Positions 1-23,374 of a DNA stretch of 24,000 nt are shown piece by piece. The notes under the pieces were generated by a model that worked only from the letters and a program-made list of their open reading frames with translations, was not told the origin of the DNA and searched no databases. A program made the position numbers and the translations under genes. Each line of letters begins with the position of its first letter. Position 1 is the first letter of the stretch. This DNA is from Pseudomonadales bacterium (GTDB taxonomy: Bacteria > Pseudomonadota > Gammaproteobacteria > Pseudomonadales > DT-91), in the NCBI GenBank assembly GCA_965225765.1, contig CBDDBO010000002.1, positions 1,875,712 through 1,899,711 on the forward strand, given 5' to 3'.

Positions 1-1232
1 TTAATTTCTTCTTCGGTTGGCTCAATGCCCTCTTCGGCAGTAAGAGCATTGACGAGCCGATTATTGAGTGCGCTAACCGCCGCCCCTGGCGATGAAGATA
101 TACAGCGTAATAAACCTAAGGCCGCCCACCATTTAAGCCTCTCTTTAAAAGTACCTGACTCTTCACTTTCTACCAATTCTTTGGCGTAACGCATGATGTC
201 ATTAAAGAGTGTTTGCCAATCGCCTGTTAGCTTATAAGTCACTTCTGTGGTGAGTTTTTCGGGGAAGGTATCGGTTTGCCACTCCTCGATATTAGCGCGT
301 TTACGCTGAATAAGGTGATTGTTAAGTTTTGCTCTTAATGGGTGCTTGGTATCTTCAACCCCCTGTAATTGCTTGAACTCTTCATCGAGCAGTGAGAGCA
401 AATTGTAGTAAGCCTCGTCTTTACCGCTGTGAGGCGTTGCCGTTAATAACAGCATGTGGCGATCGCTATCTTGCGATAATTCTTTAAGCACCTCAAAACG
501 CAATTGCCTGCCCTGCCCACTGTGCGAACAGGTATGGGCTTCATCAACCACCACAAATTCAGGGCATTGCTCCACAAAAGCATCACGGCGATTTTTGTTT
601 TTAATAAAATCGAGCGATACCACCGTAAACGGGTATTCGGTAAAGATAGAGCTGCCTGCAGGCAGGCCACGCTCTAACCGTTCTGCTGTGGCTGTACGAA
701 CAATCTCTGCATGAATATGAAAGCAATGATTAAGCTCTTGCTGCCACTGCTCGCACAGATGAGGTGGACACAGTACAGTAAACTGTTTGATCTCGCCTCT
801 ATCAAGCACCTCTCGTGCAATAAGGCCTGCCTCGATGGTTTTACCAATCCCGACATCATCGGCAATTAATAAGCGAATGGTGTCTTGCTTGAGTGCCATC
901 ATAAGTGGCACTAACTGATAGGCCCTTGGCTCAACCGCAATATTACCAAAGCTGCGAAAAGGGCCAGCGCCTGCACGCAAACTCATCATTAAGGCATCGC
1001 GCAATAATACGCCTGCGGATTGCAGCCCGATTTTTTTAGGGTTAGGCGCTGGAAATGTTGCATGGGTAATGGGCGCAGGTTCTAAATCTGGCAAGATGAG
1101 GGTTGGCGCTTCTTCACCGCCACCGAGTGGCCTTAAAAACAATGCATCCTTCTTGCTTTCGGGTAACACCACCCATTCCCTGCCACGCGCGTTGACTATG
1201 GCTCCAGGGTTAAACGCTTTCACTGAACTCAT
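1..1232 (-). CDS. SNF2-family (DrmD/RapA-like) helicase, N-terminal ~410 aa only; the 3' end runs off the left edge
   Basis: It is absent from the ORF track because no stop lies in the window. My own translation from ATG 1232..1230 gives MSSVKAFNPGAIVNARGREWVVLPESKKDALFLRPLGGGEEAP...TIRLLIADDVGIGKTIEAGLIAREVL (motif I, nt ~843-870), ...CPEFVVVDEAHTCS (DEAH motif II, nt ~534-554) and ...HMLLLTATPHSGK (motif III). The frame stays open to nt 1. The ATG overlaps the TGA of the upstream gene. Confidence 0.85.
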   Translation of the reverse strand, partial: MSSVKAFNPGAIVNARGREWVVLPESKKDALFLRPLGGGEEAPTLILPDLEPAPITHATFPAPNPKKIGLQSAGVLLRDALMMSLRAGAGPFRSFGNIAVEPRAYQLVPLMMALKQDTIRLLIADDVGIGKTIEAGLIAREVLDRGEIKQFTVLCPPHLCEQWQQELNHCFHIHAEIVRTATAERLERGLPAGSSIFTEYPFTVVSLDFIKNKNRRDAFVEQCPEFVVVDEAHTCSHSGQGRQLRFEVLKELSQDSDRHMLLLTATPHSGKDEAYYNLLSLLDEEFKQLQGVEDTKHPLRAKLNNHLIQRKRANIEEWQTDTFPEKLTTEVTYKLTGDWQTLFNDIMRYAKELVESEESGTFKERLKWWAALGLLRCISSSPGAAVSALNNRLVNALTAEEGIEPTEEEI

Positions 1233-4200
1233 GCCGTGGGTGCTCCAAAAATATCTGGGTAGGTTTTTATTATGTCAGGCCAAGTGGATTGATCTTTACT
1301 AAAGCGAATCACAATCAAGCCTGCATCTTCGAGCTGCTGCGTAATGGCTTCATCAATTTTTTGCTGCTTTGGTTTTTCGTGATGCGGCCCATCAATATAA
1401 ATCACGGCCTGATGCTCTTTGTAGGTGAAATCTGGCCGTGTTTGAAATTGCTCTATGGTCACTTGTGCATCACTGGGTAAATGATGACCGTGCTTTTCTA
1501 AATAATTAAGAAAAGCTTTTTCTAATGATGAATCTGACAGGTTGCCTAATTCTTCAGCCTGCTCTTTTTGCGTGCGTCCTTCGGATGAAGATTGCACAGT
1601 AGATTCACGCAGTTTAATCAACAATCGCTGAAATTCTGGGTTGGTGCGATCAATCAATTCATGATCGATTTGATTGTAATAACTTAACAAGCAGCGGTAA
1701 CAGGCCGCTGAGCAGTCTTCGTTGTTATTATGAAGGGCTTTATCGTCATCAATCGTAAAATGACACAGACTAATGGCTCGCTCTACCACGCGTTTAAAGG
1801 CGGTTTTATCATTCACTAAGCGAGTGAGTACGCCTGCACCGCCCTCTGCCGATTCATAATACAAAATGCCCTGCCTGTTCTCTCGGGTGGGCAATGGCTC
1901 TGCGATCAGCTCTGACTCTTCTATTTGAAACTCTTCTTCTATGCCGCGTTTCAACGCAAATTGCAGCGTGGTGAGTGTGTCATCTTCTAAGTGGGTTGCA
2001 GGCCTTAAGATTAAAATATTGCGTCTGTCTTCGGCATAAGGCGTGACTCGCTCAATATAACTGTCATCGGCTTTATCAATCTGATCGTTTACCTCTTTTG
2101 AGGCTTGCTCATCGTTAGTCCACGCCCCTGAGGTTGCATTAATATTAAACCCGAAAATGGCTTTATCCTTACGGCGACGCCAGCCTAAATTAATGCGCCA
2201 AACGGTTGCTGCTGGGGCATATTGCAGTGTTAATAAGCTGTTATCTTGCTTATCTTTGATTTCGGCATTAAATACGCGCATCGCCCCATCTTGCTTAGCA
2301 AACTGATAGGTGGTTTGCATGTCATAGCCTTGCCGTTGGCGCTCTTCTTCCTCGCAGGTTATGCGCGTCACTTTGCGTGTATTGACGTTATCAATTCGAT
2401 ACAGGGTTTTGATGGATTGCCCTTCTTCCAAAAGTGTGCCGCAAGCAACACACAGCTCCTGATCAAGCTGTTCCCTAAAATGACCATAACCACAAGCCGG
2501 GCACAATCTTGCTTCATCTTTTGGTAAGCCTTGATCTGTCGAGTCATCTTGGTTGCGTGCATTCATCATGACTTTTTCGACGCGATATTGTGCGCCCTCA
2601 TGATAAATCAAACTCATTGGGCCAAACTCTGAAATAGCCAAAAACCTTGCTCTTGAAACAAAACTATCTGAACCTGACTTTTCTCTGCGCCCGCCGATAT
2701 ATGCCATCAACGGCAACCTTGGAAAATTGTAGCCTGGCAAAAATCCTTGGCTTGCCAAATATCGGTAAGTACCAAAATCGGATTGATGGGATGATTCCGA
2801 TTTAAGTAATTCAATCTGACGAATGGCTTCTTGATAGCGTCTGTTTGCCGTTTTCTTTTCTCGATCTGAATGCGCATGACTAACATTCACTAAGTGCGCT
2901 TTGTCCCGCTGCTCACAAGCTGACAGATAAAGATCACGCCAACGCTGAAAAGAGGCATTAAACTCTTGGTAACTACTGTTTACTTTTCGCTCTAACCAAA
3001 GCCTTGCGCCTTCTTTGACTGGTACAGCATCGGATAACCAAATCCCTTTAGCGTCTTCTAGTTCCTGCTCAAGCATACCAAGCAGTACCTCGCCTCGCTT
3101 GAGTGTTTTTGCAATTACCTTTGGGGTATCCATCTCTTCTTTATAATCATTGGATACTGGCAGCTTATCTTTCTCCATATCAAGCAGTTCATTAACACCA
3201 GAGGGTAATTTTTTACGGGTTTCATTTAGCCAAATAGCATGGAGGTGACTAGAGACTAGATCTTCATTGGCTAAATCCAAGGTGGGAGGGCTAACATGAC
3301 CATGTACCATTCGCGCAGGGTCTGAAAAAAAGTATTGATCATGCGAACTAAAGGCAGAACAGTAAGTTAATACCAACGCAGGTTGACCTGAACGCCCTGC
3401 ACGCCCTGATCGCTGCGCATAATTGGCAGGTGTCGGCGGCACATTGCGCATATACACGGTGTTAAGTAATTTGATATCAACACCTAACTCCATGGTAGGC
3501 GAACAAAATAAGGTTTTAAGCTTGGCTTCTTTAAACTCGTTTTCGCGCTCTTCTCGAATATCTGATGGGACTTGTGCGGTATGCTCCCGTGCTTTTAATT
3601 CAAAAAGGGAGTGATCACCTTTTAGTAAATCCGCCACCGATTGATAAAGGGAGGTAAAATAGGCATTATCTGTATGGTATTTATCTGCAAGCGCTTTGTC
3701 ATCTTTGCCAGTACCTGACTTCCATTGAAGGCACTCGCCAACTATTTGATAACCTTCGACTTGCTTAGTGACATTTTCTTTTCTGACGATGTCATAGGAT
3801 TCTAGTGCCTGCATCAAACTGCTAATCAAGTTTACATAAACATCATCACCCATTTTTTCAGGGAATAAATAGCGGTCACTACCCCATATATCTTCGCTTT
3901 TGAGTAGCCGTGCTAATTGTGAGCGACTTGATCCTGAAACTAGCTGCAAATCTTTTTTGACGTTTTTAGGCTTCGGTTCCGTTAAGAAATACTGCGAATG
4001 CTCAAGTTTATCTTCTAAAATCCAAGGATCTTTTAAAAAGCTGCCACTTTGAAGCCTAAATGATTCCTGTTTTTCGGCATCTAAATATTCACTTTTAATA
4101 CACAAACCGCGTCGCATCGTATCTAACACGACTTTTAATGCGCTGTATCGATGCTCAGGTTTCGCTTGAGCTAACTCATAACTAGGCAAACCCCGCCATT

Positions 4201-6451
4201 GAGATTCGTTTTTGGCTAGTTCTTTTAATCCATCATAATCAACGGCTAGCAACCCTAACTGTTCAAGATTGGGGTTATTAAAGCGCCAGCCTTTTCGTAG
4301 ATCACGATAAAGGCTGTAAGCGATAACCTTGCGAATGGCTTCTATGGCTTTTTTTCTACCGGGGCCTTGTGCAGTAGGGTTATCCATAAACTCTTCTGGC
4401 TTGTTATCAAAAGCCAGTGCGTTATAAACAGATTGGGACAGGTTACTATCAGTCAAAAAACCTTCTTCTGACTGCTTAACCGCCGACAAAAGTGCTGAGC
4501 GCAAAATAAGCACTTGAACAAAGTCGTTGTAGTGCCCTGCTTGCAACGAAGCGTCTTGCCGATTGTCAGTAAACCCCAAGAGTTTCTTGGCATCATCTTC
4601 AAGATCCGTTTCACGCTCTAACATATACCTAAGCGCTGATATCGCAAGTACCGTCGTTGCGGACGAGCGACCCTCCCCCGTCAAGGAGGTTAATCTGTTT
4701 CCATCTCGGCCTCTAGCCTGATAACTGACACCACAATGCAAACAAAAGCGAAAATTTCCTGGCAAGAACCAACCATGCACGTTTTTATGGCTGACTTTAC
4801 CTTGTGAGCAGACACCCATAGAACGTGGTTTATAGGCCTTATAATTCCGCTTTAATTGATAGTCCCCTTTTTTAAACTCAATCCAATTTTCTGGGTAGCT
4901 TTTTGGATCTTCATCATTCCACTTTTTGTCTTTATCAAACATAAAAAAGCCAAAGTGATCTGTATCTTCATTATCCGTCTCACTAATATCTCTTGGCTCT
5001 AATGTTAATTCGCCATCGTTTTTTTCATGCCAGACAGGATAGTAGTCTTGCCCGCATTGGCGGCAGAAGTGCACACTGAATAATTTTTCTTGTTTTTCTA
5101 GGCTTTTTGGATTGTAGATTTGACCACTTAAATCAAAAACGCGTTTATTCTCAGGAGATAAGGTAGAGTAGATATTATCGGCTGCCGAGATAAACTGATG
5201 CACCCTAAACGCAAATAGCGGCTTACCTTTTTCATCTCTGGTGTTATAAGCTGTGAGCAAAAATTGCTGTAAGTAGGCTTTACATATTCCCTGATCTACG
5301 CCTGTCTGTTCCGTCAACAATTTCGCTGCACTCATCAAGCTTTGCGGCTTGGCTCGAATATAGTTACCTTCTTCTTTGTTTAGCCCTAAGGTCAACTCAA
5401 CCCAGATTGATAATGGGTGCTCTCTGAGTGCTTTAAAATCTAATTCGCCAGGCTTTGGTGCTGGCTTCTTTAAACATTTAGTTAATAACTTGTTGGATTG
5501 GGCAACCTCTCCTTCCGTCTGCCGCTGCAACAACTCAGTAATAATATTGTCAGGGTTAACATCTGCGCCAAAGAGTTTTGATGCGACATCTGCTACCGCT
5601 TTCTTTTTGGCAAATTGTGAGCCTTCGCTTGCCATGGTTGCTGAGGTTCCCACACAGAGTACATCTGGGTTTAAAAATTCTCTTACGCGCCTAACCAATA
5701 GCGCAACATCTGCCCCTTGACGACCTCTGTAGGTATGCAGCTCATCCAACACAAGAAAATCAAGCCCTTTAGCTGAAGCAATAACTTTTCTGTCAATTAC
5801 ATCTTGTCTTGTCATCAACAGCTCAAGCATCATGAAGTTAGTCAAGATGATATCGGGGGGATTTTTAGCCATGGCACGACGCTGAGTGTCACTTTCCTGA
5901 CCGGTATAACGACCAAAGGTCACAGGCTTACTCTCACCAAACGAACCTAAAAACTTCTCTAACTCATCCGCTTGAGAATTAACCAAGGCATTCATTGGAT
6001 AAATAATGATCGCCTTAATGGAGGCTTTAGGGGAAGATTGTTTCGCTTTTAGAATGGAATCGACAATGGGAAGAATATAAGATAGTGACTTACCCGAACC
6101 TGTACCTGTCGTTAAAACATAGCTTTGCTTAGTTTGAGCGACTTTAATCGCTTTCTCTTGATGGTGATAAAGCTTGGCGGGAACACCTAATTTACCACCT
6201 TCTAGGTTTTTGTCGAATCGAAAGATATCTGCACAGCTGGAGTGCAACTCACCCTGCCTGACTAGATCTTCAACATCATAACTCTGAACAAAGGATGGGT
6301 TTAACTGTATGAGTGGATCAGGCCAAAATTTTCCATCAGCGTATTGTGAGCCAACAAACTGCTTTATATCCTCTGCCTTTATTTTGGTAAAACTGGTAGT
6401 GAATTTGCTGTAGTCTGCAATCACAGAATTACGATAATCAAAAACGTCCAC
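1229..6451 (-). CDS. Giant fused SF2 (DEXH) helicase, Zn-ribbon insert, DUF1998/MrfA-type Zn domain and C-terminal Vsr/DUF559-like endonuclease (1740 aa)
   Basis: Track ORF with a GTG start at 6451 preceded by AGGAAGG. Helicase motifs: Walker A GTGSGKS (K121), DELH (236-239), SAT (270-272) and motif VI QRSGRAGR (1013-1020). There are CxxC pairs at 463/466 and 570/573. DUF1998 signatures: YLASQGFLPGYNFP, CPAC/CVAC (1317-1337), ESAEGGAG and C-x3-CYRCLLSYYNQ (1580-1593). The tail TRPDFTYKEHQAVIYIDGPHHE (1671-1692) resembles the Vsr/DUF559 core. Confidence 0.9.
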   Translation of the reverse strand: MDVFDYRNSVIADYSKFTTSFTKIKAEDIKQFVGSQYADGKFWPDPLIQLNPSFVQSYDVEDLVRQGELHSSCADIFRFDKNLEGGKLGVPAKLYHHQEKAIKVAQTKQSYVLTTGTGSGKSLSYILPIVDSILKAKQSSPKASIKAIIIYPMNALVNSQADELEKFLGSFGESKPVTFGRYTGQESDTQRRAMAKNPPDIILTNFMMLELLMTRQDVIDRKVIASAKGLDFLVLDELHTYRGRQGADVALLVRRVREFLNPDVLCVGTSATMASEGSQFAKKKAVADVASKLFGADVNPDNIITELLQRQTEGEVAQSNKLLTKCLKKPAPKPGELDFKALREHPLSIWVELTLGLNKEEGNYIRAKPQSLMSAAKLLTEQTGVDQGICKAYLQQFLLTAYNTRDEKGKPLFAFRVHQFISAADNIYSTLSPENKRVFDLSGQIYNPKSLEKQEKLFSVHFCRQCGQDYYPVWHEKNDGELTLEPRDISETDNEDTDHFGFFMFDKDKKWNDEDPKSYPENWIEFKKGDYQLKRNYKAYKPRSMGVCSQGKVSHKNVHGWFLPGNFRFCLHCGVSYQARGRDGNRLTSLTGEGRSSATTVLAISALRYMLERETDLEDDAKKLLGFTDNRQDASLQAGHYNDFVQVLILRSALLSAVKQSEEGFLTDSNLSQSVYNALAFDNKPEEFMDNPTAQGPGRKKAIEAIRKVIAYSLYRDLRKGWRFNNPNLEQLGLLAVDYDGLKELAKNESQWRGLPSYELAQAKPEHRYSALKVVLDTMRRGLCIKSEYLDAEKQESFRLQSGSFLKDPWILEDKLEHSQYFLTEPKPKNVKKDLQLVSGSSRSQLARLLKSEDIWGSDRYLFPEKMGDDVYVNLISSLMQALESYDIVRKENVTKQVEGYQIVGECLQWKSGTGKDDKALADKYHTDNAYFTSLYQSVADLLKGDHSLFELKAREHTAQVPSDIREERENEFKEAKLKTLFCSPTMELGVDIKLLNTVYMRNVPPTPANYAQRSGRAGRSGQPALVLTYCSAFSSHDQYFFSDPARMVHGHVSPPTLDLANEDLVSSHLHAIWLNETRKKLPSGVNELLDMEKDKLPVSNDYKEEMDTPKVIAKTLKRGEVLLGMLEQELEDAKGIWLSDAVPVKEGARLWLERKVNSSYQEFNASFQRWRDLYLSACEQRDKAHLVNVSHAHSDREKKTANRRYQEAIRQIELLKSESSHQSDFGTYRYLASQGFLPGYNFPRLPLMAYIGGRREKSGSDSFVSRARFLAISEFGPMSLIYHEGAQYRVEKVMMNARNQDDSTDQGLPKDEARLCPACGYGHFREQLDQELCVACGTLLEEGQSIKTLYRIDNVNTRKVTRITCEEEERQRQGYDMQTTYQFAKQDGAMRVFNAEIKDKQDNSLLTLQYAPAATVWRINLGWRRRKDKAIFGFNINATSGAWTNDEQASKEVNDQIDKADDSYIERVTPYAEDRRNILILRPATHLEDDTLTTLQFALKRGIEEEFQIEESELIAEPLPTRENRQGILYYESAEGGAGVLTRLVNDKTAFKRVVERAISLCHFTIDDDKALHNNNEDCSAACYRCLLSYYNQIDHELIDRTNPEFQRLLIKLRESTVQSSSEGRTQKEQAEELGNLSDSSLEKAFLNYLEKHGHHLPSDAQVTIEQFQTRPDFTYKEHQAVIYIDGPHHEKPKQQKIDEAITQQLEDAGLIVIRFSKDQSTWPDIIKTYPDIFGAPTA

Positions 6452-6485
6452 CTAACCTTCCTAGTACTTTATCAACAACACTCCA

Positions 6486-6559: not shown

Positions 6560-6736
6560 TTACTCTCTAATTAATGGTAGATATACTTCGAGGGCATTTT
6601 GTACAATTCTGCTAACAGTTGCATTATCACTTTTTAATTTTTTATTTTTAAAAGCAATATCTTGAAGCTCATCGATCATTTCGACATCTAAACTAATTGA
6701 CGTGGCTTTCATTTTTTTTGTTCTATTATCATTCAT
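6560..6736 (-). CDS. Ribbon-helix-helix (CopG/Arc-like) small DNA-binding protein, 58 aa (below the ORF-track cutoff)
   Basis: Hand translation: MNDNRTKKMKATSISLDVEMIDELQDIAFKNKKLKSDNATVSRIVQNALEVYLPLIRE*. The pattern of a basic N-terminus, a beta-strand (KATSISL) and two helices is typical of RHH proteins. There is no clear SD, and Met9 is an alternative start. Confidence 0.5.
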   Translation of the reverse strand: MNDNRTKKMKATSISLDVEMIDELQDIAFKNKKLKSDNATVSRIVQNALEVYLPLIRE

Positions 6737-6861: not shown

Positions 6862-7176
6862 AACGAAGAAAATAAAACTTAACAAAACAAGAAGCTCCTA
6901 CATCTCAAACGTAGTAGTGCCATCACCTTGAACACAATTACCACAACTACGGTAATTAATTTTACTAAAACAGCTAGTCGAGTTAACAGAGGAAACGGCG
7001 CTACTTTCAATCTAACATTGATAATCGTGAAGTAACTTAAGCTCTCACTGGCTCACAATGAACTAACGAACAAAGTCGCTCTAGCCTACGCTATTCATTT
7101 AGCTGCCCTATTTCTTGATAAACCTCGGCCAAAAGCCTTATCGCTTCTTCTACCTTCTGATTACAGCCTGCTTTCA

Positions 7177-8592
7177 TTACCGCTGGGTGATCGAGTACAA
7201 ATTCGTCCAAATTGCACTGCGCGATAAGTAGTCAGCCCTGACAAAGGCCTTATATTTTTTAAGGCCAAGTATTATCGAAAGCATAAACTTAAAGCCAGCC
7301 AATCTGCTGGCTGCTTTTTGATCAGGTAACCAGATAAAAACAAGCACAAAAAAAGCGTTGATCCACTTTTTTAAGTTCCAGGCACAAGCAGCCATCAACA
7401 AGTTAAGCTGATCGCCGATAAAGCCCTTAAGGAAGTTCCTGCACAATCTGAAGTCTTGCTTCAAATGACCGATAACGGGCTCAATGGATGAGCGTTTTTT
7501 ACAAAGCGTTCGTTTACGTGCTCGTTGTTTATCATTATCTCGCTTAAGAGGCTTGCCTGGTAAAATAACTTCCTGCTTCACTTTAGATTTGGAACCTTGA
7601 TAGCCTTTATCAACAACAGCAGTTTTGATGGATGTCTCTCTCACAGATTCTGCTTCATCTAACGCAGTTTGTAATGTTTCAGAATCATGCGTGAACGTAT
7701 CATGTGCAGCGACGCCAACAATGACATGATCGCGTGTCGATACGATAGAAGCCTTGCTCCCGTATTCGTATTTTTTATGCGCCTTACCTTTAGCAACACA
7801 GTAGACTTGAGGCTCATGAAGGCTGTAAATTTTGTTCTTGTCCTTAGACTGTTGAGCAAGTACCTTGCGATACATGGCAAAATCGTTTGCTAGCTGTGCA
7901 ACCGCACCCTCTGGGAGTTTTCGCTCAAGCTCTCTCATCAGAATGTCAGCAATAGTACGCAGACGCTTCAAGGCTTTTTTAGCCTTCTTGCGTTTCTTTA
8001 CATGTCCAAAGAAGCGCGAGTCAATACGAAGCTGTTTTACCTCTTTGACAAAAGTTCGCCGCTGTTTGACACCAAAGCCTTTTGCTAGCTTATTCACTCG
8101 ATTAATGATTTTGATGGCGAGCTTTGTATCGGTCGGATAGGTGATAGCTTTTTCCTGTACCCTCGTATCAACAAAAACCGTATCATCTTCAGCTGCCTCT
8201 CCATGCAGCTTAACTGACATCGCAAAAATCTGTTTAACGCCGCTCTCGCCAATTCTTTGCCTGAATTTTACAAGGTCTGTTGGATGGCAAGGCAGGCAAG
8301 ATTGAAAACTGGTTTCACCGCAGAAAAATTGAAAGTATGGGTTCATTTTCCACTGAGAAACCACATTCCCGTCACTCAAATTGAAGAGCTGCTTGAGCAT
8401 TAATAAGCCGCTCATCAATCGAATGGGTTTGGCTGGGCGACCTTCTTCGCTGTAATAAACGGCAAGACCTTTTTCTAAATCTGGCCAAGGCAATGCGTTC
8501 GATAAGGCTATGAGCGGGTCATTGAGATCTAATGAATCGAATAGATCAAAAAAGCTTCTTTGATTGTTCGAAGACGGGCTTGTAGTCAGCAT
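7177..8592 (-). CDS. IS5-family DDE transposase (InsH-type N-terminal domain plus DDE domain)
   Basis: Track ORF of 471 aa. DDE-region signatures: FVDTRVQEKAITYPTD, AVVDKGYQG and SSIEPVIGHLKQDFRLCRNFLKG. The last 18 codons (7177-7230) lie outside the IS end. Confidence 0.9.
   Translation of the reverse strand: MLTTSPSSNNQRSFFDLFDSLDLNDPLIALSNALPWPDLEKGLAVYYSEEGRPAKPIRLMSGLLMLKQLFNLSDGNVVSQWKMNPYFQFFCGETSFQSCLPCHPTDLVKFRQRIGESGVKQIFAMSVKLHGEAAEDDTVFVDTRVQEKAITYPTDTKLAIKIINRVNKLAKGFGVKQRRTFVKEVKQLRIDSRFFGHVKKRKKAKKALKRLRTIADILMRELERKLPEGAVAQLANDFAMYRKVLAQQSKDKNKIYSLHEPQVYCVAKGKAHKKYEYGSKASIVSTRDHVIVGVAAHDTFTHDSETLQTALDEAESVRETSIKTAVVDKGYQGSKSKVKQEVILPGKPLKRDNDKQRARKRTLCKKRSSIEPVIGHLKQDFRLCRNFLKGFIGDQLNLLMAACAWNLKKWINAFFVLVFIWLPDQKAASRLAGFKFMLSIILGLKKYKAFVRADYLSRSAIWTNLYSITQR
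7225..7230. repeat. Target-site duplication TAAGTA (left copy)
   Basis: Identical hexamer abutting both IS termini. Confidence 0.7.
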
Positions 8593-8711
8593 CCAAAACT
8601 CATTTCGACCAGTAATTTAAGGCTTTTAGAGTCTTTCTGGTCGAAATTGTTCGTTTCAAGCCAGCCCTAAGCCTCTTTAAATGAAGCTTTCTACTGTTTA
8701 TCAGGGCTGAC
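7231..8711 (-). mobile_element. IS5-type insertion sequence (1481 bp)
   Basis: Terminal inverted repeats are GTCAGCCCTGA(C)AAA at 7231 and its complement TTTATCAGGGCTGAC ending at 8711. They are flanked by a perfect direct repeat TAAGTA (7225-7230 and 8712-8717). The element encodes a single DDE transposase. Confidence 0.8.
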
Positions 8712-8717
8712 TAAGTA
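8712..8717. repeat. Target-site duplication TAAGTA (right copy)
   Basis: Identical hexamer abutting both IS termini. Confidence 0.7.
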
Positions 8718-8799: not shown

Positions 8800-9060
8800 T
8801 TACAAATCAAAAATCTCGATATCCTTTTTATAAATCAAATGAAACACTGGCACTTCGGTATACTCAGCCCTTTTGATACCTAGCTCTAGCTGCATTAAAC
8901 GACGCTCATTCATCCCAAATCTTGCACCATAGAAATATCTACTCTGCCTTGCTGCTAATCTTGGATGAACGATATGCCTAATTTTTACTGGTTTATCATT
9001 AGGCCAGTTTTTTCTGAAAATCTCGCGTCTTCTAGCACTAATAGATAGGGGAAGCTTCAC
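8800..9060 (-). CDS. Hypothetical protein (86 aa)
   Basis: Track ORF with a GTG start and no convincing SD. I recognise no family. Its position in the co-directional gene string is the only support. Confidence 0.35.
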   Translation of the reverse strand: MKLPLSISARRREIFRKNWPNDKPVKIRHIVHPRLAARQSRYFYGARFGMNERRLMQLELGIKRAEYTEVPVFHLIYKKDIEIFDL

Positions 9061-9106
9061 TATTTAAGTCTCTTGTCTGATTAATGTTTTAGGCACAACT
9101 CACTTA

Positions 9107-9634
9107 TCAGCCATCACCATTCACTGAGATTAAACCTGTAAAGATCGGTAACGCCCAGTCAGCATGCTGGTATCTATATCGCAGCGACATATTCTTAGGT
9201 AACACCACGTTATAAGATAAGGTAGCCAGCGCCCGCAATGCATCTTGGCGTAAAAAGTGATCATATGCTCGATAAACATCTACGCGTTCAATGAATGCCG
9301 GATACGCTTCTTCTGTTAGATTGACGCCGGGTAAAGCATTCCATTCTTTTACAATATTTTCAGCCTTATGTTCGATCACCATAAACAACTGACAGTCGTC
9401 TTCTAACTGACTGACTGAATATTCAATTAAGGTTGAAGCATCCGTAAATGAATAAGGTGTTGGTGGTAAGTAATTATGAATCTGCAAGCTAAACTCTTTA
9501 CAGGCTAAATCTGACGTTTCTGCTATTCCCATTGTAAAGGTGGGTTTTATTGACTTAAAAAATAGTCCTACCGTAAAGCAAACTATTGCAACTAGAAGAA
9601 TTCTAAATGGATAAACGATTTTATTGTTATACAT
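9107..9634 (-). CDS. Hypothetical protein with an N-terminal membrane anchor
   Basis: The track ORF starts at a TTG (9673). I prefer ATG 9634 (MYNNKIVYPFRILLVAIVCFTVGLFF...), which gives one hydrophobic helix followed by a soluble domain. It lies immediately downstream of the WYL regulator. Confidence 0.6.
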   Translation of the reverse strand: MYNNKIVYPFRILLVAIVCFTVGLFFKSIKPTFTMGIAETSDLACKEFSLQIHNYLPPTPYSFTDASTLIEYSVSQLEDDCQLFMVIEHKAENIVKEWNALPGVNLTEEAYPAFIERVDVYRAYDHFLRQDALRALATLSYNVVLPKNMSLRYRYQHADWALPIFTGLISVNGDG

Positions 9635-9720
9635 CACTTGGGCCCTATACCAGCCAACCCGACAAGTGATCAAATAATAATCAAGCCAATTACAATATGC
9701 AAACTTTATTTACAGGTAAT

Positions 9721-10599
9721 TTAACTTGCATCAAATAAAAGTTCATGCACTTTCGCTTTGTCTAATTCACTCACAACAAGCGGATAAGCAATGGCATCTT
9801 GCTCTAAATAATCTTCAACAGGCACCTGATAACGCTGCAACGTATAATGCACAAGCGCCTTTTGCGTCGTTAGTTTTAGCTTCCCTCTTGTCATTGCATA
9901 ATCTTTTTTAATAAGTTTCTGCTGAGACTCACTAAGATTAGGATTAGGCACTAAATGAAAACTGATCGTTTGCTGCCATTTATCGTCAGATTGATCGCTT
10001 ACAAAAGCGTCGCCCTTCACCGCTTCCACTTGAGACATTCTCGATAGATTAAAGTCTCGATAGGACTGCCGCTCATGGCAATAGGCTCTAACATGCCACC
10101 TAAATCCACTATAGATTAAACGGTGCGGTGATAGTTGCCGCTTAATACCCTCAGGGTTGGTCATCGACATATAAATTAAACTCACCACCTGCTGCTTTCT
10201 TGCAGCTTCTAACAACACCCGAACCGTTTTAGCTTGAATAGCTCTATCAGGATAACTCACCGCTGTAATGAGCGGATGGTCAACAACTTTGCCGGGCTGG
10301 CTCTGACTAATTAGGCCTATCAGCATATCCATGTATTCATTGATATGCCCTTGTGATAACACAGGTTTAAAATCAGGCTCAGGCTTATACGCTTTCAAGT
10401 CTTTATCATATACAAGTGCATCAGGGTTATAGTTATCACAATATCGCTTAATGTCCTTTGAGGCCTGTTGCCGCGATATACCAAACAAACCGATAAGTCT
10501 TGGTGTATTGAGTCGCCCCTCCCAAAAAGCAATCAATTCAATGGCCCGATACCTGAGCAATACTTCGTATTTTTCTGCTTCTTGAGTCAGAGCTGGCAC
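9721..10599 (-). CDS. HTH plus WYL-domain transcriptional regulator (BrxR/CapW-like)
   Basis: Track ORF of 292 aa with a GTG start. The N-terminal wHTH is LIGLFGISRQQASKDIKRY. The WYL-type core is SPHRLIYSGFRWHVRAYCHERQSYRDFNLSRM. Confidence 0.85.
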   Translation of the reverse strand: MPALTQEAEKYEVLLRYRAIELIAFWEGRLNTPRLIGLFGISRQQASKDIKRYCDNYNPDALVYDKDLKAYKPEPDFKPVLSQGHINEYMDMLIGLISQSQPGKVVDHPLITAVSYPDRAIQAKTVRVLLEAARKQQVVSLIYMSMTNPEGIKRQLSPHRLIYSGFRWHVRAYCHERQSYRDFNLSRMSQVEAVKGDAFVSDQSDDKWQQTISFHLVPNPNLSESQQKLIKKDYAMTRGKLKLTTQKALVHYTLQRYQVPVEDYLEQDAIAYPLVVSELDKAKVHELLFDAS

Positions 10600-15377: not shown

Positions 15378-15560
15378 CTAATAACGCATCATTTGGCTTG
15401 CTATCCACTTTTCAAATTCCTTAATAGGAAAAAGCCTCCTCGATCCTATTTTTTTTGAAGGTGGAAGACTCTCCCCCTTACTCAATTTGTTGCGAATCGT
15501 GCCTTCTTTAAGATATAGAAGCTTGGCGATTTGTCTTACTGTGTAATACTCATTTTTCAT
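15378..15560 (-). CDS. AlpA/excisionase-family small HTH protein (copy 1)
   Basis: The track ORF starts at GTG 15611. ATG 15560 has AAGGA 9 nt upstream and gives a 60-aa product, MKNEYYTVRQIAKLLYLKEGTIRNKLSKGESLPPSKKIGSRRLFPIKEFEKWI. Confidence 0.7.
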   Translation of the reverse strand: MKNEYYTVRQIAKLLYLKEGTIRNKLSKGESLPPSKKIGSRRLFPIKEFEKWIASQMMRY

Positions 15561-15733
15561 ACACTTGTCCTTAAGCTGATGATTGAAAATAGCGTGATTA
15601 GTTTCCTCCACACACCACCTCTAATCTAGTGAGATTGGGCTGCAACCGGCTAAGGGTTAAACACCCTTACAGGGCTACCAATACTCGACCGAAAATAAAT
15701 GACGTACTCAGAAAACGATAAGGCCATTAACTT

Positions 15734-15785
15734 GTAGCAATCTGCTACCGTTTAATTTGAACCTCACGTAGCAATTTGCTACAAT
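15734..15785 (+). promoter_or_regulatory. Promoter with twin palindromic operators upstream of the ParD-like antitoxin gene
   Basis: GTAGCAatcTGCTAC (15734-15748) and GTAGCAattTGCTAC (15768-15782) have centres 34 bp apart. TTGAAC (15757-15762), a 17-nt spacer and TACAAT (15780-15785) form the promoter. The second operator overlaps the -10. Confidence 0.6.
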
Positions 15786-15810
15786 CAAACCAGCAACTGA
15801 GGATCAATTC

Positions 15811-16215
15811 ATGGCAAAATCACGCTCACCGGTAAGACTTGATGAAGATCTCATGGCTGATGCGGCGATCAGCGGCAAACTTCATAGCCGATCTGCTGCT
15901 GAAACCATTGAATATTGGGCCTCTATCGGTCAAAAAGTCTCAAAAATACTCGACCCAGAAACCTTATTAGATATTCAAGCAGGCGCTGTATCGCTTGAAA
16001 TCAAAAAACAAACCGTCACGCATGTTGATCCTGATGACTTATTTTCAGGCATTGAAGCATCACGTGAAGCGGGAACCTTAACCGCCCCCCCTCATCAAAA
16101 ACCCATCTATCAAGCAAGCAAAACGCATCCAGGCAAGCTTGAACAACTCATGCCAAATGGCGACATCAACATTGGGCAATTCAAAAATGGCAAATTTACT
16201 CAAGTCAAAACGTAA
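15811..16215 (+). CDS. ParD-like (RHH-type N-terminus) antitoxin
   Basis: GAGGA sits 8 nt upstream of the ATG. The N-terminus is SPVRLDEDLMADAAISGKLHSRSAAETIEYWASIGQKV. The gene lies 6 nt upstream of a zeta-type toxin gene. Confidence 0.7.
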   Translation: MAKSRSPVRLDEDLMADAAISGKLHSRSAAETIEYWASIGQKVSKILDPETLLDIQAGAVSLEIKKQTVTHVDPDDLFSGIEASREAGTLTAPPHQKPIYQASKTHPGKLEQLMPNGDINIGQFKNGKFTQVKT

Positions 16216-16221
16216 CAGCGC

Positions 16222-16818
16222 ATGACACATTCCCCTCAACTTTGGCTGCTCGTCGGCGGTAATGGCGCTGGCAAAAGCACCTTTTACGAGCAGTTCCTAA
16301 AGCCAAAAGGCATACCCTTTGTCAATGCTGATGTCATTGCAAAGACGTATTTTGGCGAACAGGCAGAAACGCGTTGCAGAGAAGCAGCCCAGATTGCCGA
16401 GCATTTGAGATTCAGGCTTGTTGAAGAAAAACAGTCATTTTGCTTCGAAACCGTCTTTTCACACCCTAGCAAAATAGACTTTGTCGCTCATGCTAAAGCC
16501 TCGGGTTATCAAATCATTGTGGTGTTTATTCGGCTTGAACAACACCCATTGCATTACGCACGTGTAGCACAACGCGTTAGCTTAGGTGGTCATTCTGTAC
16601 CTGAAGACAAAATCAGCCCTCGAATTGAACGACTTGAAGACAATGTCGTGTCACTCATCGAATACGGATTAGCGCATCACATCAAAATCCTAGATAACTC
16701 GTCTGCCTCTGACCCTTTTAAACCCATACTCACGATCAAAGGTCAGCAATTGACAGAGCATCAACCCGCCACTCCGATTTGGCCTGCGCGTTTTATTCAA
16801 GCGGCGACAGATTACTAA
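16222..16818 (+). CDS. Zeta-toxin-family P-loop kinase-like toxin
   Basis: It has a P-loop at LLVGGNGAGKSTFYEQF and is ~198 aa long. Its pairing with a ParD-like antitoxin is typical of this family. Confidence 0.75.
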   Translation: MTHSPQLWLLVGGNGAGKSTFYEQFLKPKGIPFVNADVIAKTYFGEQAETRCREAAQIAEHLRFRLVEEKQSFCFETVFSHPSKIDFVAHAKASGYQIIVVFIRLEQHPLHYARVAQRVSLGGHSVPEDKISPRIERLEDNVVSLIEYGLAHHIKILDNSSASDPFKPILTIKGQQLTEHQPATPIWPARFIQAATDY

Positions 16819-17009
16819 CGGTTTGTCTGCTTTGCATTCAGCCACGAGTGAACCTCAGCGTAACTGAACAATCGTTTACCTCCCATTAATTTTGACTTTG
16901 GAAAATCGTCTCCCTTAGACAGTTTATTTCTCAAGGTTCCTTCAGTGAGCCTTAAGATATGCGCAACTTCTTTCACGGTATAATAGTGTGTATCGTGAAT
17001 AATTTTCAT
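16815..17009 (-). CDS. AlpA/excisionase-family small HTH protein (copy 2)
   Basis: MKIIHDTHYYTVKEVAHILRLTEGTLRNKLSKGDDFPKSKLMGGKRLFSYAEVHSWL is roughly half identical to copy 1 by eye. Its 3' end overlaps the zeta gene stop by 4 nt in convergent orientation. Confidence 0.75.
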   Translation of the reverse strand: MKIIHDTHYYTVKEVAHILRLTEGTLRNKLSKGDDFPKSKLMGGKRLFSYAEVHSWLNAKQTNR

Positions 17010-17133
17010 GACCTACTCTCATCAATAAACATAGTGAAATTTATAGGCCTGTGTCAGAAAAAATTATCCCTTCGAATTGCCCATTTAGGGCAAACCTTTT
17101 CAATTACGCTTAGTTTTTAAAAGCTGCCGGATG

Positions 17134-17302
17134 TCTAGGAGGCTGTCCAAGAACTGACTGTTCGGCCTAAGCTTCCAATAATCGGCCAGACTTCTCATAA
17201 AATTTCTTTAAATAGGCCGGCTATTCGCAGAAATTTTCTAAAAATTCTGACTCAATTCTTGAAACCTTATGCTCGAACGCAATTCTCGGACACCCTCCTA
17301 GA
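17134..17302. repeat. MITE-like 169-bp element with ~30-bp imperfect terminal inverted repeats
   Basis: The left arm is TCTAGGAGGCTGTCCAAGAACTGACTGTTCG. The reverse complement of the right arm is TCTAGGAGGGTGTCCGAGAATTGCGTTCG, giving ~26 of 31 matches with 2 one-nt gaps. The right arm contains the hipA stop codon. Confidence 0.5.
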
Positions 17303-18557
17303 GGCGAAAATCTTTATTGAGGCTCTCCCAATGCACTTTTAGCAAAGCTTTATGGGCATCATTCATGGGTAAATGTTCAAGCTCAGTTCGCCATAGTGCT
17401 CTTGCTTTGTCCATTACATCCTCAACGTGAGGCTTAATTGCACGCCAAGGAACACCTACCTTTTTTGAAAGAAATTCAAAATGCTCTTTTTTGATCTCAT
17501 ACCACGCTTTTGTTTTCGCAAGGTTTAATGCCAAGTGTTCTTCTTCATGCATATACACACTAGTCGTCACTATGTCATAGGCAGGCGATAATCGAGGCGT
17601 GAGTTTATCAGGGTAGTAAAGGCTCCAATTCTTCAAATGTGCATCACCATTTGCAAGAAGAATGTTAATCAGTAATCGCCTTACATACTGTTGCACATCA
17701 GACAACCCGTTATACGAATACTCATAAATAATCTTACCAATGGCTTCTGCATTGGCACCTGTGTACTTTTCATGCGGATATTTAAGTAACACTTGAGCAA
17801 AGTCTTCCATATGCACACGCGTTTGGTCATCTCGATCAAACCGCTTAATAGCAAACGCTTTTGTCTCCTTAGGAAGATTAATAGCCGGTAAGTTATCCAG
17901 CTGAGACATGTCCACCAATTGAATATCAGGAATATTTACACCAGCCATAGCGGCCAAACGCATCGCTGTGTATTCATTAAGCGGAACATCTGGGTGAGTG
18001 GTCGATGGGGTTTTGACAATCCAATCACCTAAGGTGCCACGTTGATTAAATGTAAATCGATCACCTAGCTCACGCATCGAAAACTTCATTTGCACACCAG
18101 CTAAAGAAAACTTTTCTTCAGTTTGGACGCGCTCCTGATTCACAATATCAACATCGCCCATCGCGTCAATGATTGTAGCTGGCACTTCGTTGATTGCTAC
18201 AGGCTCAACAATTAGAGCACCTGGCAAATTAAGACCCACAGCTGATAATAGATCAAATTCATTATCAATGTGTGTTTTTAACGATTGAGCAACCAGCGCT
18301 CGTAACGCTCCTTCTGGCAGCAGATTAGACAACAATGGATGTAGCCTTTGTTTGGTTACCCAAGGTTTTGCTAATAGCCTTGATGATGCTTGAAAGCCAG
18401 GCATTGTCACTAAACTAAGCGCTGGACGCTGTTGGTTTTCACTAAAAGACGTTGCAAAATGCATGATATTGCGGCCATTGGTTAATCCTGCCAAATAGCC
18501 CACGACTGCGCCATGTAATGTGAGTTTAAAGATCTGGCCTTGCGACTTACTCAACAT
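17298..18557 (-). CDS. hipA: HipA-family serine/threonine kinase toxin (module 1)
   Basis: FSLAGVQMKFS (P-loop-like motif), NGDAHLKNWSL (catalytic D-H-x-KN) and LSPAYDIVTT. It overlaps the upstream HTH gene by 11 nt. Confidence 0.88.
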   Translation of the reverse strand: MLSKSQGQIFKLTLHGAVVGYLAGLTNGRNIMHFATSFSENQQRPALSLVTMPGFQASSRLLAKPWVTKQRLHPLLSNLLPEGALRALVAQSLKTHIDNEFDLLSAVGLNLPGALIVEPVAINEVPATIIDAMGDVDIVNQERVQTEEKFSLAGVQMKFSMRELGDRFTFNQRGTLGDWIVKTPSTTHPDVPLNEYTAMRLAAMAGVNIPDIQLVDMSQLDNLPAINLPKETKAFAIKRFDRDDQTRVHMEDFAQVLLKYPHEKYTGANAEAIGKIIYEYSYNGLSDVQQYVRRLLINILLANGDAHLKNWSLYYPDKLTPRLSPAYDIVTTSVYMHEEEHLALNLAKTKAWYEIKKEHFEFLSKKVGVPWRAIKPHVEDVMDKARALWRTELEHLPMNDAHKALLKVHWESLNKDFRL

Positions 18558-18855
18558 CTTCGTCCTCTATCAAACCCACCCATGGGTTTTCAAAATACTC
18601 ATCATCCTCATCTTGACTTTCATTTTTCGCATTTTGCAGCAATGAACGCACCGCCTCTATCTTATCTTTAGGTACAAGGATTAGTTCACTCTCCAACCCT
18701 TCTGCCACTAAGGCCAATGTATCTAATCTCGGATTACCTTTTGACTCTAGCCGCTGGTACTGCTGCCGTGACATGCCCATTTTCAGCAGCATGTCTTGCT
18801 GCTTCAAGCCAAGTTGTAACCGCCTTTGTTTAATTTGCTTAAGTAGCGCACGCAT
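18547..18855 (-). CDS. hipB: XRE-family HTH antitoxin (HipB-like, module 1) with an acidic C-terminal tail
   Basis: HTH: LGLKQQDMLLKMGMSRQQYQRLESKGNPRLDTL. Tail: NESQDEDDEYFENPWVGLIEDEDVE. Confidence 0.8.
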   Translation of the reverse strand: MRALLKQIKQRRLQLGLKQQDMLLKMGMSRQQYQRLESKGNPRLDTLALVAEGLESELILVPKDKIEAVRSLLQNAKNESQDEDDEYFENPWVGLIEDEDVE

Positions 18856-18860
18856 AGATG

Positions 18861-18958
18861 AAACTTATATATTGCTTTTTAATTCATAAGAAACATATTA
18901 GCTTCTTTTAAAGATAAAGCAACTTATTAGATACTAATGAGAAAAAAGCAGCTTATAA
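18861..18958. promoter_or_regulatory. Four A(A/G)C(T/A)TAT motifs at ~29-30-bp spacing upstream of hipB (module 1)
   Basis: AACTTAT at 18862, AACATAT at 18892, AACTTAT at 18921 and AGCTTAT at 18950. The last lies within the palindrome core CTTATAAG. Confidence 0.3.
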
Positions 18959-19033
18959 GTTGCCTTACGGTGAGATTTATCAGGCAATGTAGGCGGTGGA
19001 AAAGTCTCATTGGCTAAACTCTCACTCAATTTA

Positions 19034-19081
19034 ATGCGCAGAAAAGTGCTGCATTTATACACTTTTATGCGCATAAAAGTG
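19034..19081. promoter_or_regulatory. 22-bp perfect palindrome plus a third half-site
   Basis: CACTTTTATGCGCATAAAAGTG (19060-19081) is perfectly self-complementary. ATGCGCAGAAAAGTG (19034-19048) matches the half-site at 14 of 15 positions. Confidence 0.6.
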
Positions 19082-19281
19082 TCAATTTGATCATATTTAA
19101 AACAGTCATGCGGCGATTAGCCCCCTTATTCACCTTAAATTTTGCGGTGATTAACCATATAGTTTTATGAAACGTTTTCGTTAACTCAGTGCTCAAGTAC
19201 CTGCGGACGTAGAATGGAAATGAGAAGCACTACTTACCTAGGAAAATGCAATGATGAATACTTTTGTCTAACGTTTTATTA

Positions 19282-20586
19282 CTAAAGCAGTGCTTTATTT
19301 TCGTTTTTACGCAGGCACAGAGTTTTCTTTATTGCAGTAATGGTTGATTGACTAACACCAAGGCTCTTCGCTATTCCATCAAACTGACTAACAGCATCCA
19401 GTACCTCTCTTACAACAGGCTTAGCTTCTTGCCAACTTGAAAAGCCTGCCCCGGTGGCAAGCTTTTCCATGGTTTTTAATGGCGGCTTACTTCCATACCC
19501 GCCGAAAGCTGTTGCATGTTGGTTAAATGGATGAGGACTGAAGGTTGCATCATAAAATGGCGCAACAGACCACTGCCCGTCATCACGCTGTAAAAAGGAC
19601 CAATTCTTAGTGTGGTCATCTTGATTAGCAGCAAACAGATTAAAAACAGCCCGCCGAAATTGCAGTCGGCCCACCGCTGGCGACTTACACAGCTGACGGC
19701 TCGCTTTAATCAGCTCGACATAATCTAAGCTTGGCGTTCGAAAATCTGCATCAAGCAATCCGCAAGCACTATGCATGTGAAGCCGTCCAGACACTTCACC
19801 CATCACATGATCAAAACGTTTTACGGCTAACCAAGCCTCGGCACCGCTACTTTCTGGCGCTGGTAATAAACGCCAAATAGGTGGCTGACAGCCTGCCAAT
19901 TCTGCCATAGCTAAATAAGCAGCCTCACATAAACCCTCTTCATGACCTAGCGCTAAATTTTTTGATGTGAACTTAACAAGCCAAGCCTCATCACCTGGCT
20001 TCTCATACGTCCGACAAACACTAAAATCATCAGGCGGTACAAAAATTAACGCTTTGGGGCGAGCACCACCAGAGCTGCCACCTGCTACTAGTGCTTCCAG
20101 CACTTGTTTCATGTTGCCATCCAGTTCGTCAGTGATCGCTTGATCAAAAAGTTGTTGTGCTTCAAGCCCCAACGTCTCCAAATCAAATTCATGTTGAGAT
20201 TGATTGGCAAAGGGTGATTCAGGCTCAAACTGTAACGCCCCCATTCCCTTCTTCCCGACAAAAGCCAAGCGATCCATCTGCGTTACCTCCGCAGGCAAAA
20301 TACCCTGTTGGCGATACAGCCTATCTTGAAGCAACAAACCCCATCCATCTGGCAAGTGGTCTGCAAAAAGGCCGTGAAGCCCTTTATGAGGCTCAAGAGA
20401 TGCTTTTTGTAGCTTGAAACTTTCTTCTAAAGAGAAAGGTGATAGATTACCGAATGTACTCAGATAATCTTCACCGTATTGAAAGAATACCCCAGAGCGA
20501 TTTTGCGCCAGTGTGCCTACTTTGACTGATTGACCTGTGGAGAGTATCCGCGTAACACCTAGCTGTTGAATAGGTTTAAATGCCAC
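19282..20586 (-). CDS. hipA: HipA-family kinase toxin (module 2)
   Basis: GSSGGARPKALIF, NQDDHTKNWSFL and VAPFYDATFS. It overlaps the upstream HTH gene by 11 nt. Confidence 0.88.
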   Translation of the reverse strand: MAFKPIQQLGVTRILSTGQSVKVGTLAQNRSGVFFQYGEDYLSTFGNLSPFSLEESFKLQKASLEPHKGLHGLFADHLPDGWGLLLQDRLYRQQGILPAEVTQMDRLAFVGKKGMGALQFEPESPFANQSQHEFDLETLGLEAQQLFDQAITDELDGNMKQVLEALVAGGSSGGARPKALIFVPPDDFSVCRTYEKPGDEAWLVKFTSKNLALGHEEGLCEAAYLAMAELAGCQPPIWRLLPAPESSGAEAWLAVKRFDHVMGEVSGRLHMHSACGLLDADFRTPSLDYVELIKASRQLCKSPAVGRLQFRRAVFNLFAANQDDHTKNWSFLQRDDGQWSVAPFYDATFSPHPFNQHATAFGGYGSKPPLKTMEKLATGAGFSSWQEAKPVVREVLDAVSQFDGIAKSLGVSQSTITAIKKTLCLRKNENKALL

Positions 20587-20875
20587 CTTTCAGCACCTCT
20601 TCGATTGTTTTTGGTTCACCTTGAGCATTCGAGTGATTAGCCACTTGCGTCAACGCATAGATGCGCTGTAATTCATCTAACGACTGCCACAGCAACAACA
20701 ATTGCCTGAATGAAATTTGACCGGTTAGCTCAAATTTTTTGATGGTCGGCGCTGGTACATTACTACGCACTGAAAGCGCTTGTCTCGATAGACCTTCTGC
20801 TTCTCGTAGTTGTCGCAGATAGGCAGCAAAGGCCGTTTGAACGTCAGTCTCATCAAGGAGTTGAAGCTTAGCCAT
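20576..20875 (-). CDS. hipB: XRE-family HTH antitoxin (HipB-like, module 2)
   Basis: LRQLREAEGLSRQALSVRSNVPAPTIKKFELTGQISFRQLL. It is translationally overlapped with the downstream hipA. Confidence 0.8.
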   Translation of the reverse strand: MAKLQLLDETDVQTAFAAYLRQLREAEGLSRQALSVRSNVPAPTIKKFELTGQISFRQLLLLWQSLDELQRIYALTQVANHSNAQGEPKTIEEVLKGGI

Positions 20876-23278: not shown

Positions 23279-23374
23279 ACCTTGCATTTTAGGAGTCAAA
23301 CTCCAAAAAAACAAGGTTTTTCATTAAAATACCCTGCAAAATTGGAGTTGAACCCCCAAAATGCAAGGTTTCAT
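23274..23374. repeat. Imperfect ~50-bp tandem direct repeat spanning the ATPase start region
   Basis: Read on the - strand, ATGAAACCTTGCATTTTGGGGGTTCAACTCCAATTTTGCAGGGTAT aligns with ATGAAAAACCTTGTTTTTTTGGAGTTTGACTCCTAAAATGCAAGGTAT at roughly 70-75% identity by hand alignment. Confidence 0.55.

Follow-up and report, generated by a model that had tools for sequence, protein, structure and literature searches.

The window analyzed here, a 24,000-nucleotide (nt) stretch of contig CBDDBO010000002.1 from a Pseudomonadales bacterium (positions 1,875,712 to 1,899,711), very probably contains the first one and a half genes of a Type I anti-phage operon of ARMADA (short for "disARM-related Antiviral Defense Array"), with armC present in full and armA in part. 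ARMADA was described by Bell et al. (bioRxiv September 2025, PMC12458937) and is defined by three proteins, namely a YprA-family helicase nearest to DruE of Druantia, a helicase resembling BrxHII/RapA and a methyltransferase resembling PglX. The published Type I order starts with the YprA helicase with a C-terminal Vsr domain (ArmC), followed by the BrxHII/RapA-like SNF2 helicase (ArmA) and the PglX-like methyltransferase (ArmB) (PMC12458937). The same order was found in the window, where armC is followed by the SNF2 gene armA, and the visible part of the locus shows no difference from ARMADA Type I.

Translation of the open reading frame (ORF) gives an ArmC protein of 1740 amino acids (aa) that starts at a GTG codon. 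The Pfam analysis identified the core of the Type I protein, a YprA-family superfamily 2 helicase and a DUF1998/MZB domain in a single polypeptide. The helicase part contains the motifs GTGSGKS (residues 116–122, including K121), DELH (236–239), TSAT (269–272) and QRSGRAGR (1013–1020), and CxxC motifs are present at five sites (463, 570, 1317, 1334 and 1584). In an alignment with 20 homologues of 50–62% identity, the helicase motifs and all of the cysteine clusters were invariant. According to the published description, ARMADA helicases have CxxC zinc modules in a beta-barrel within RecA2 and zinc inserts in the OB region, of which there is one in Type I and two in Type II; inserted BrxA-like and MarR-like domains are also among the Type I helicase features (PMC12458937). 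The region with C463/C466 and C570/C573 corresponds, by position, to the putative zinc-binding beta-barrel in RecA2 of ARMADA and Druantia helicases (PMC12458937), and C1317/C1320/C1334/C1337 form a single cluster. Thus, as far as the pattern can be read from the sequence, the cysteines of window ArmC fit the Type I description, in which RecA2 contains CxxC motifs and the OB region a single zinc insert.

The relationship to Type I was further analyzed by comparison with published proteins. In Table S1 of PMC12458937, the designation "ARMADA Type I helicase" is given to ABC30535.1 (Hahella chejuensis), AZZ92140.1 (Hahella sp. KA22), AMO54593.1 (Endozoicomonas montiporae) and ABK44516.1 (Magnetococcus marinus), and these proteins are P0149, P0147, P0090 and P0095, respectively, in our set of homologues. 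In BLASTP searches, window ArmC aligned to the four proteins from residue 1 to approximately residue 1737, with identities of 58%, 58%, 51% and 50% and bit scores of 1712–2077. Another match, on a plasmid of Roseomonas mucosa (CP034907), is also included in Table S1 of PMC12458937. The full-length identities of 50–58% to Type I proteins, as compared to matches with Type II ArmC and with DruE of Druantia Type III (DruE III) that are only local, argue that window ArmC belongs to the Type I clade.

At least 8000 homologues of window ArmC were found, with full-length relatives across many phyla, and armC is therefore a real gene rather than a chance ORF. One database entry is 100% identical to window ArmC, and the next closest of the matches listed share 62% identity with it across their full length.

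The C-terminal domain of ArmC in both Types I and II has been described as a Vsr-type nuclease that is predicted to be active (PMC12458937). Window ArmC terminates with this domain, and the Vsr motif D..Y...DGPHH..D is intact (D1674, Y1677, D1687-G-P-H1690-H1691, D1700). Residues D1674, Y1677, D1687, G1688, H1690, H1691 and D1700 were all invariant among the 20 aligned homologues. Pfam DUF559 gave a weak match to the tail at aa 1674–1721 (1.1e-4; 22.5 bits versus a cut-off of 20.6). A profile built from 32 ArmC C-termini had as its best match in the PDB 3hrl, an 'endonuclease-like protein' (E = 0.1). The AlphaFold2 model of the C-terminal domain displayed a predicted local distance difference test score (pLDDT) of 84.7, and its best Foldseek match was 3r3p, the catalytic domain of I-Bth0305I (E = 0.06, probability 0.97, template modeling score 0.62), a domain with a Vsr-like fold. 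The best structural match reported for the Vsr domain of ArmC in PMC12458937 is also 3hrl. Each of these statistics is weak alone and all of them agree, consistent with a C-terminal Vsr-type nuclease that is predicted to be active.

Related loci were collected by scanning one genome per species, which yielded more than 600 candidates; 80 loci from many bacterial phyla were kept (individual loci are denoted L001, L004 and so on). The best of the scanned loci encodes an ArmC that is 61% identical to window ArmC. Neighboring genes in the related loci were analyzed by ORF clustering and tblastn. Of the 70 loci in which 1 kilobase (kb) or more of DNA beyond armC is available, 69 have a gene for ArmA, an SNF2 helicase of approximately 945 aa, directly downstream of armC. 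Where the downstream sequence extends to 8 kb or more (55 loci), an ArmB homologue was identified in 54, namely after armA (1300–1650 aa) in 53 and upstream of armC in one. The ArmB protein of L001 matched Eco57I (2.3e-23) and N6_Mtase, contains an NPPW motif and had DrmMI as its best PADLOC match (4.4e-71). The methyltransferase gene is located upstream of armC in L067, and methyltransferase-like genes flank armC-armA on both sides in L066. The genes surrounding the related armC loci vary from locus to locus.

In the window, the stop codon of armC and the start codon of armA share the sequence ATGA at 1229–1232. The armA reading frame is open through all 410 visible codons, and the translated fragment contains the motifs DDVGIGKT (125–132) and VVDEAH (228–233). 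The fragment shares 68% identity with the ArmA of L001 (950 aa), as compared to 29% with the Type II ArmA of E. coli. The ArmA of L001 (15217–18066) is matched end to end by the PADLOC v2 model 'DpdE PDLC02853' (698 bits, model positions 2–972 of 985), which fits Type I ArmA far better than any DrmD model. Since PADLOC v2 would label ArmC as DruE and ArmA as DpdE, ARMADA Type I loci are easily misfiled.

Many of these features had been noted in an earlier sequence-only reading of this DNA. The motifs GTGSGKS, DELH, SAT and QRSGRAGR in a 1740-aa chain were all found where they had been placed, and the DUF1998 module, the Vsr/DUF559 tail and the SNF2 gene whose start is overlapped by the armC stop were recovered in the domain searches, with the tail match being weak. 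The two CxxC pairs that were described are part of a larger set: CxxC motifs are indeed present, but their number is five. The co-occurrence of the gene pair, which had been suggested as a check, was borne out by the related loci with their unrelated flanking genes, and the methyltransferase, the search for which had also been suggested, appears in the relatives as a DrmMI/PglX-like gene when these are followed along the operon. The coordinates of all features are given in Table 1.

Table 1. Features of the window, and genes located after armB in related loci (last three rows; coordinates of the respective locus)
Feature	Position	Strand	Basis or remark
armA, BrxHII/RapA/DrmD-like SNF2 helicase, first 410 codons	1..1232	minus	Translation; Pfam SNF2-rel_dom 1.2e-14; runs out of the window
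armC, ARMADA Type I YprA-family DExH helicase-nuclease, complete (very probable assignment)	1229..6451	minus	ORF, translation, Pfam, identity to listed Type I proteins
C-terminal Vsr/DUF559-type PD-(D/E)xK nuclease domain (predicted), ~aa 1640-1740	1232..1534	minus	Pfam DUF559, motif, profile and model matches
MZB/DUF1998 zinc-binding domain, aa 1496-1588 (C1580, C1584, C1587, H1564)	1688..1966	minus	Pfam 6e-9; residues invariant
One CxxC...CxxC cluster, C1317/C1320/C1334/C1337, in OB-CON region	2441..2503	minus	Invariant in alignment
RecA2/Helicase_C, aa 932-1022, motif VI QRSGRAGR	3386..3658	minus	Pfam 8.8e-13
Two conserved CxxC (C463/C466, C570/C573)	4733..5065	minus	Cysteines invariant in alignment
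RecA1/DEAD domain, aa 96-276, Walker A GTGSGKS (K121) and DELH (D236, E237)	5624..6166	minus	Pfam 1.8e-25; residues invariant in alignment
Shine-Dalgarno-like AGGAAGG, 4 nt 5' of armC GTG	6456..6462	minus	Read from sequence
58-aa ORF	6560..6736	armC strand	PHROG CopG-like match only, weak, E = 0.028
IS5-type transposase	7177..8592	armC strand	DUF772 and DDE_Tnp_1
Two ORFs, 86 and 188 aa, between IS and WYL gene	8800-9673	minus	188-aa product looks membrane-anchored
WYL-domain protein, 3.3 kb upstream of armC	9721..10599	minus	Pfam WYL 2.1e-16; PADLOC WYL 4.3e-23
Two AlpA-like HTH_17 genes	15378-15611, 16815-17009		
ParD-like/zeta-toxin pair	15811-16818		
Two HipA/HTH (HipBA) pairs	17298-18855, 19282-20875		
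AAA_14 and DUF4143 ATPase, second putative defense gene	22106-23314	minus	PADLOC candidate family PDC-S01 1.6e-91
Extra genes after armB, L001	23160-25100		
Extra genes after armB, L050	22664-25287		
Extra genes after armB, further loci: L004, L007, L016, L019, L022, L025, L031, L034, L044, L046, L053, L057, L062, L065, L078			

Several observations weigh against the assignment of the window to a functional ARMADA Type I operon. The armB gene and the final approximately 540 codons of armA fall outside the window, and the ArmB of the source genome was not found among the best 120 homologues of L001 ArmB. An insertion sequence (IS) is located 0.7 kb upstream of armC, which suggests that the regulation of armC may be disturbed. 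The support for the Vsr domain from the PDB and fold searches is statistically weak (E = 0.06–0.1), and the anti-phage experiments that we found in the literature were carried out on ARMADA Type II only (PMC12458937, PMC13463889).

Some of these observations also speak for a decaying or incomplete ARMADA locus, in which armA is truncated or armB has been lost and the defense is gone: the left part of the operon lies beyond the window, ArmB is missing from the best homologues, and the IS transposase is accompanied by unassigned ORFs just upstream of armC. However, armC is intact across 1740 codons with all catalytic motifs conserved, armA is open over its visible codons and closely similar to a full-length orthologue, and the armC-armA-armB triad is near-universal among the relatives. 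A decayed locus is thus considered unlikely, and we hold it to be highly probable that the operon is complete in the source genome.

ARMADA Type II was also considered for the window locus, using the validated locus of E. coli ATCC 8739 as the reference and the neighboring DruE as DruE III. Type II has the three protein kinds of Type I, namely the SNF2 helicase, the PglX-like methyltransferase and the YprA-Vsr helicase, and its logic is presumably the same. However, the Type II order is strictly armA-armB-armC-armD, whereas armC precedes armA in the window, and Type II has an additional RelE-GajB-like ArmD. No UvrD-like gene was found to be conserved in the related Type I loci by ORF clustering. 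The Type II ArmC of E. coli is 2113 aa long and has, in addition, EEP and inactive Vsr domains, which in Type II often but not always come after the active Vsr. Its similarity to window ArmC in BLASTP was confined to three local segments with identities of 34%, 35% and 21% (121 + 82 + 55 bits). Membership in Type II was rejected based on the gene order, the local-only similarity of ArmC and the end of the protein at the Vsr domain.

Druantia shares with ARMADA the fused helicase-DUF1998 protein, and BrxA-like and zinc beta-barrel inserts are common to DruE and ARMADA helicases (PMC12458937). The large gene could accordingly be a druE gene, perhaps of a new Druantia type with an SNF2 partner. 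The best PADLOC matches of window ArmC are indeed DruE models (DruE3 7.1e-107, DruE1 1.4e-97), and ARMADA helicases have been reported to be closest to those of Druantia (PMC12458937). However, PADLOC v2 (2023) predates ARMADA, so that DruE is merely the nearest model available there. Moreover, the DruE3 match spans only aa 31–663, and the BLASTP alignment to the DruE III of E. coli consists of two local segments (114 + 95 bits). DruE III bears PLD domains and has DruH as its partner, whereas window ArmC bears a Vsr domain and is found without a DruH, DruA-D or DruMFG partner; its neighbors are the SNF2 helicase and, in the relatives, an adenine methyltransferase. We therefore regard an assignment to Druantia as very improbable.

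An equally improbable explanation is that the locus represents a compact Class 1 DISARM system, in which DrmA and DrmB have been fused and the PLD nuclease has been replaced. Class 1 DISARM consists of DrmD, DrmMI, DrmA, DrmB and DrmC, with DrmA and DrmB encoded by separate genes and DrmC as the PLD nuclease. The gene contents run in parallel (helicase, DUF1998, SNF2 and N6-adenine methyltransferase), and the DISARM SNF2 helicase and N6-adenine methyltransferase are homologous to ArmA and ArmB. DrmD is the second-best PADLOC match of ArmA (2.8e-50), and, as mentioned, ArmB is best matched by DrmMI. However, the NCBIfam models for DrmA gave scores of only 17.5 and 14.3 bits, as compared to cut-offs of 950 and 999, and the match to DrmB was marginal (PADLOC E = 0.003). 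For the NCBIfam model of DrmD, the score was 178 bits for the window ArmA fragment and 335 bits for the full-length ArmA of L001 versus a cut-off of 610, suggesting a homologue rather than an equivalog. No PLD domain was identified in ArmC by Pfam and no PLD gene in the related operons, and the published YprA tree places DISARM on another branch than ARMADA and Druantia (PMC12458937). The functional resemblance to DISARM stands and gave ARMADA its name.

The sequence-only reading had thus correctly recognized a defense-type operon with parts homologous to DISARM and Druantia components, as well as the fusion of DrmA-like and DrmB-like functions with a Vsr domain in place of PLD and the translational coupling to a DrmD-like SNF2 helicase. 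Its view that the combination was undescribed did not hold, since the architecture, the gene order and the orthology of the locus all agree with ARMADA Type I; given this clean match to a catalogued system, the system is known and not new.

The sequence-only reading had also drawn a comparison with Hhe, and a single-gene, Hhe-like helicase-Vsr protein located beside an unrelated SNF2 gene would account for a helicase and a Vsr-type tail in one polypeptide. This explanation is extremely unlikely: no HheA model in PADLOC matched either the last 586 or the last 143 aa of ArmC at E <= 1, no HheA was present among the best 25 of 41 PADLOC matches for the whole protein, and the SNF2 gene, which is translationally coupled to armC and co-occurs with it across the related loci, has no place in a system of a single gene. 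Just as remote is a housekeeping DNA-repair helicase of the MrfA/YprA type, for although the MZB domain, by which MrfA is defined, is present in ArmC, the protein exceeds by more than a factor of two the size implied by the nearest repair-type helicase profiles that were matched (742–804 positions), includes a nuclease as well as additional zinc modules, and is linked to SNF2 and methyltransferase genes in a pattern that is patchy across phyla and often plasmid-borne.

For ARMADA Type I, a mechanism can be proposed by analogy with the related systems. The experiments on Type II showed that all four genes are essential, and that the system depends on the Walker motifs in ArmA and ArmC as well as on NPPW in ArmB (PMC12458937, PMC13463889). 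Protection by Type II was broad, and the infected cells remained intact, viable and metabolically normal (PMC12458937, PMC13463889). In enterohemorrhagic E. coli, ARMADA II and Druantia III act in synergy, and phages escape when their DNA is hypermodified. DruE recognizes single-stranded DNA (ssDNA) and is a 3'-to-5' helicase (bioRxiv 10.64898/2026.05.13.724758).

By analogy, ArmB, a methyltransferase of the PglX/Eco57I-type that acts on N6-adenine, would mark the host DNA by adenine methylation and thereby likely serve in the distinction of self from non-self. ArmC would load onto invading DNA that is unmodified, at regions that are single-stranded or contain ends, much as DrmAB and DruE do, each in its own way. 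The helicase would then translocate at the expense of ATP, followed by cutting of the DNA by the Vsr nuclease, the activity of which is likewise considered likely. ArmA, which is RapA/BrxHII/DrmD-like, may act as a translocase on double-stranded DNA that aids in loading or target processing. The expected outcome would be a direct, non-abortive clearance of the phage.

The Vsr motif has been lost in many members of the ArmC family. Among the 55 informative loci, an HNH gene was found with 10 of the 21 ArmC proteins that lack the motif, versus 1 of the 34 that contain it (Fisher p = 1e-4, with kinship ignored). In 11 of the related loci, armB is followed by a gene for an LmuB-like/DUF2326 ATPase of approximately 650 aa (PADLOC LmuB 4e-25), and an HNH_2 endonuclease of approximately 220–250 aa is encoded after armB in 11 loci. 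The starts of the LmuB-like and HNH_2 genes overlap the stops of the preceding genes. The main text of PMC12458937 makes no mention of HNH, LmuB or SMC partners. We tentatively propose, as a possibility that falls somewhat short of an even chance, that there are two effector set-ups in Type I, one with an intact Vsr domain in cis, as in the window, and one with a decayed Vsr domain and an HNH nuclease in trans, often together with an LmuB-like/DUF2326 ATPase.

Full-length ArmC homologues were identified on 81 plasmids, of which 13 are conjugative and 23 mobilizable (36 together). Examples include NC_000958.1 (Deinococcus radiodurans MP1), NC_015851.1 (Acidithiobacillus caldus) and NZ_CP034907.1 (Roseomonas mucosa). 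The 29-kb Roseomonas plasmid with the ArmC homologue also carries a phage exclusion protein of the Lit family. The names given to the proteins on the annotated plasmids that were opened are generic, such as "DEAD/DEAH box helicase", "helicase-related protein" and "hypothetical protein".

The region upstream of armC contains a WYL gene and an IS, both of which had been pointed out in the sequence-only reading and were confirmed by Pfam. Neither of these is within the published definition of ARMADA Type I, to which they are thus additions in the window. An IS5-type element (7065–8713) is located between the WYL gene and armC, with candidate terminal inverted repeats at 7065–7078/8642–8655 or 7229–7245/8697–8713. 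A WYL homologue with 34% identity (E = 1e-43) was found directly upstream of armC in L046 (375–1106, Falsiruegeria mediterranea), the only one in the 80 loci. The presence of this homologue beside armC suggests that an ancestral WYL-armC arrangement may have been split by the IS. The WYL gene of the window may be an associated regulator that has been separated from armC by the IS and two ORFs, and L046 and the window together suggest an occasional regulatory link between WYL proteins and ARMADA. The two intervening ORFs (86 and 188 aa) displayed no match in Pfam, PADLOC or PHROG.

The 58-aa ORF closest to armC, for which a ribbon-helix-helix regulator had been suggested, has at best weak similarity to such proteins, limited to the CopG-like PHROG match. 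It had no match in Pfam, PADLOC or the PDB, nor is it a conserved neighbor of armC on the upstream side across the 80 loci. No terminator-like site was observed between this ORF and armC.

Beyond the WYL gene, the window contains core-looking genes that encode CreD and a CreBC-like two-component pair, followed by an RDD protein. The creBCD neighbors and the GC content of 43% give the locus a gammaproteobacterial-looking context, and the window lacks a tRNA gene that could indicate a site of integration. A second variable patch (15378–20875), located on the right of the creBCD-like and RDD genes, looks like an island rich in toxin-antitoxin genes that is apart from ARMADA; its genes and the PDC-S01 ATPase are listed in Table 1.

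This class of systems had already been published in 2025, together with its architecture and its kinship to DISARM and Druantia, and Type II has been validated in two studies. What is new here is a further member of ARMADA Type I and not a new system. The locus provides an example of the three-gene type in a gammaproteobacterial-looking context. The nuclease swap, if true, would identify the Vsr domain as the effector nuclease and would represent an undescribed subtype, in the relatives. A compact Type I operon with an intact Vsr domain would be a convenient model for the questions of whether Vsr acts as the effector and which target is methylated by ArmB.

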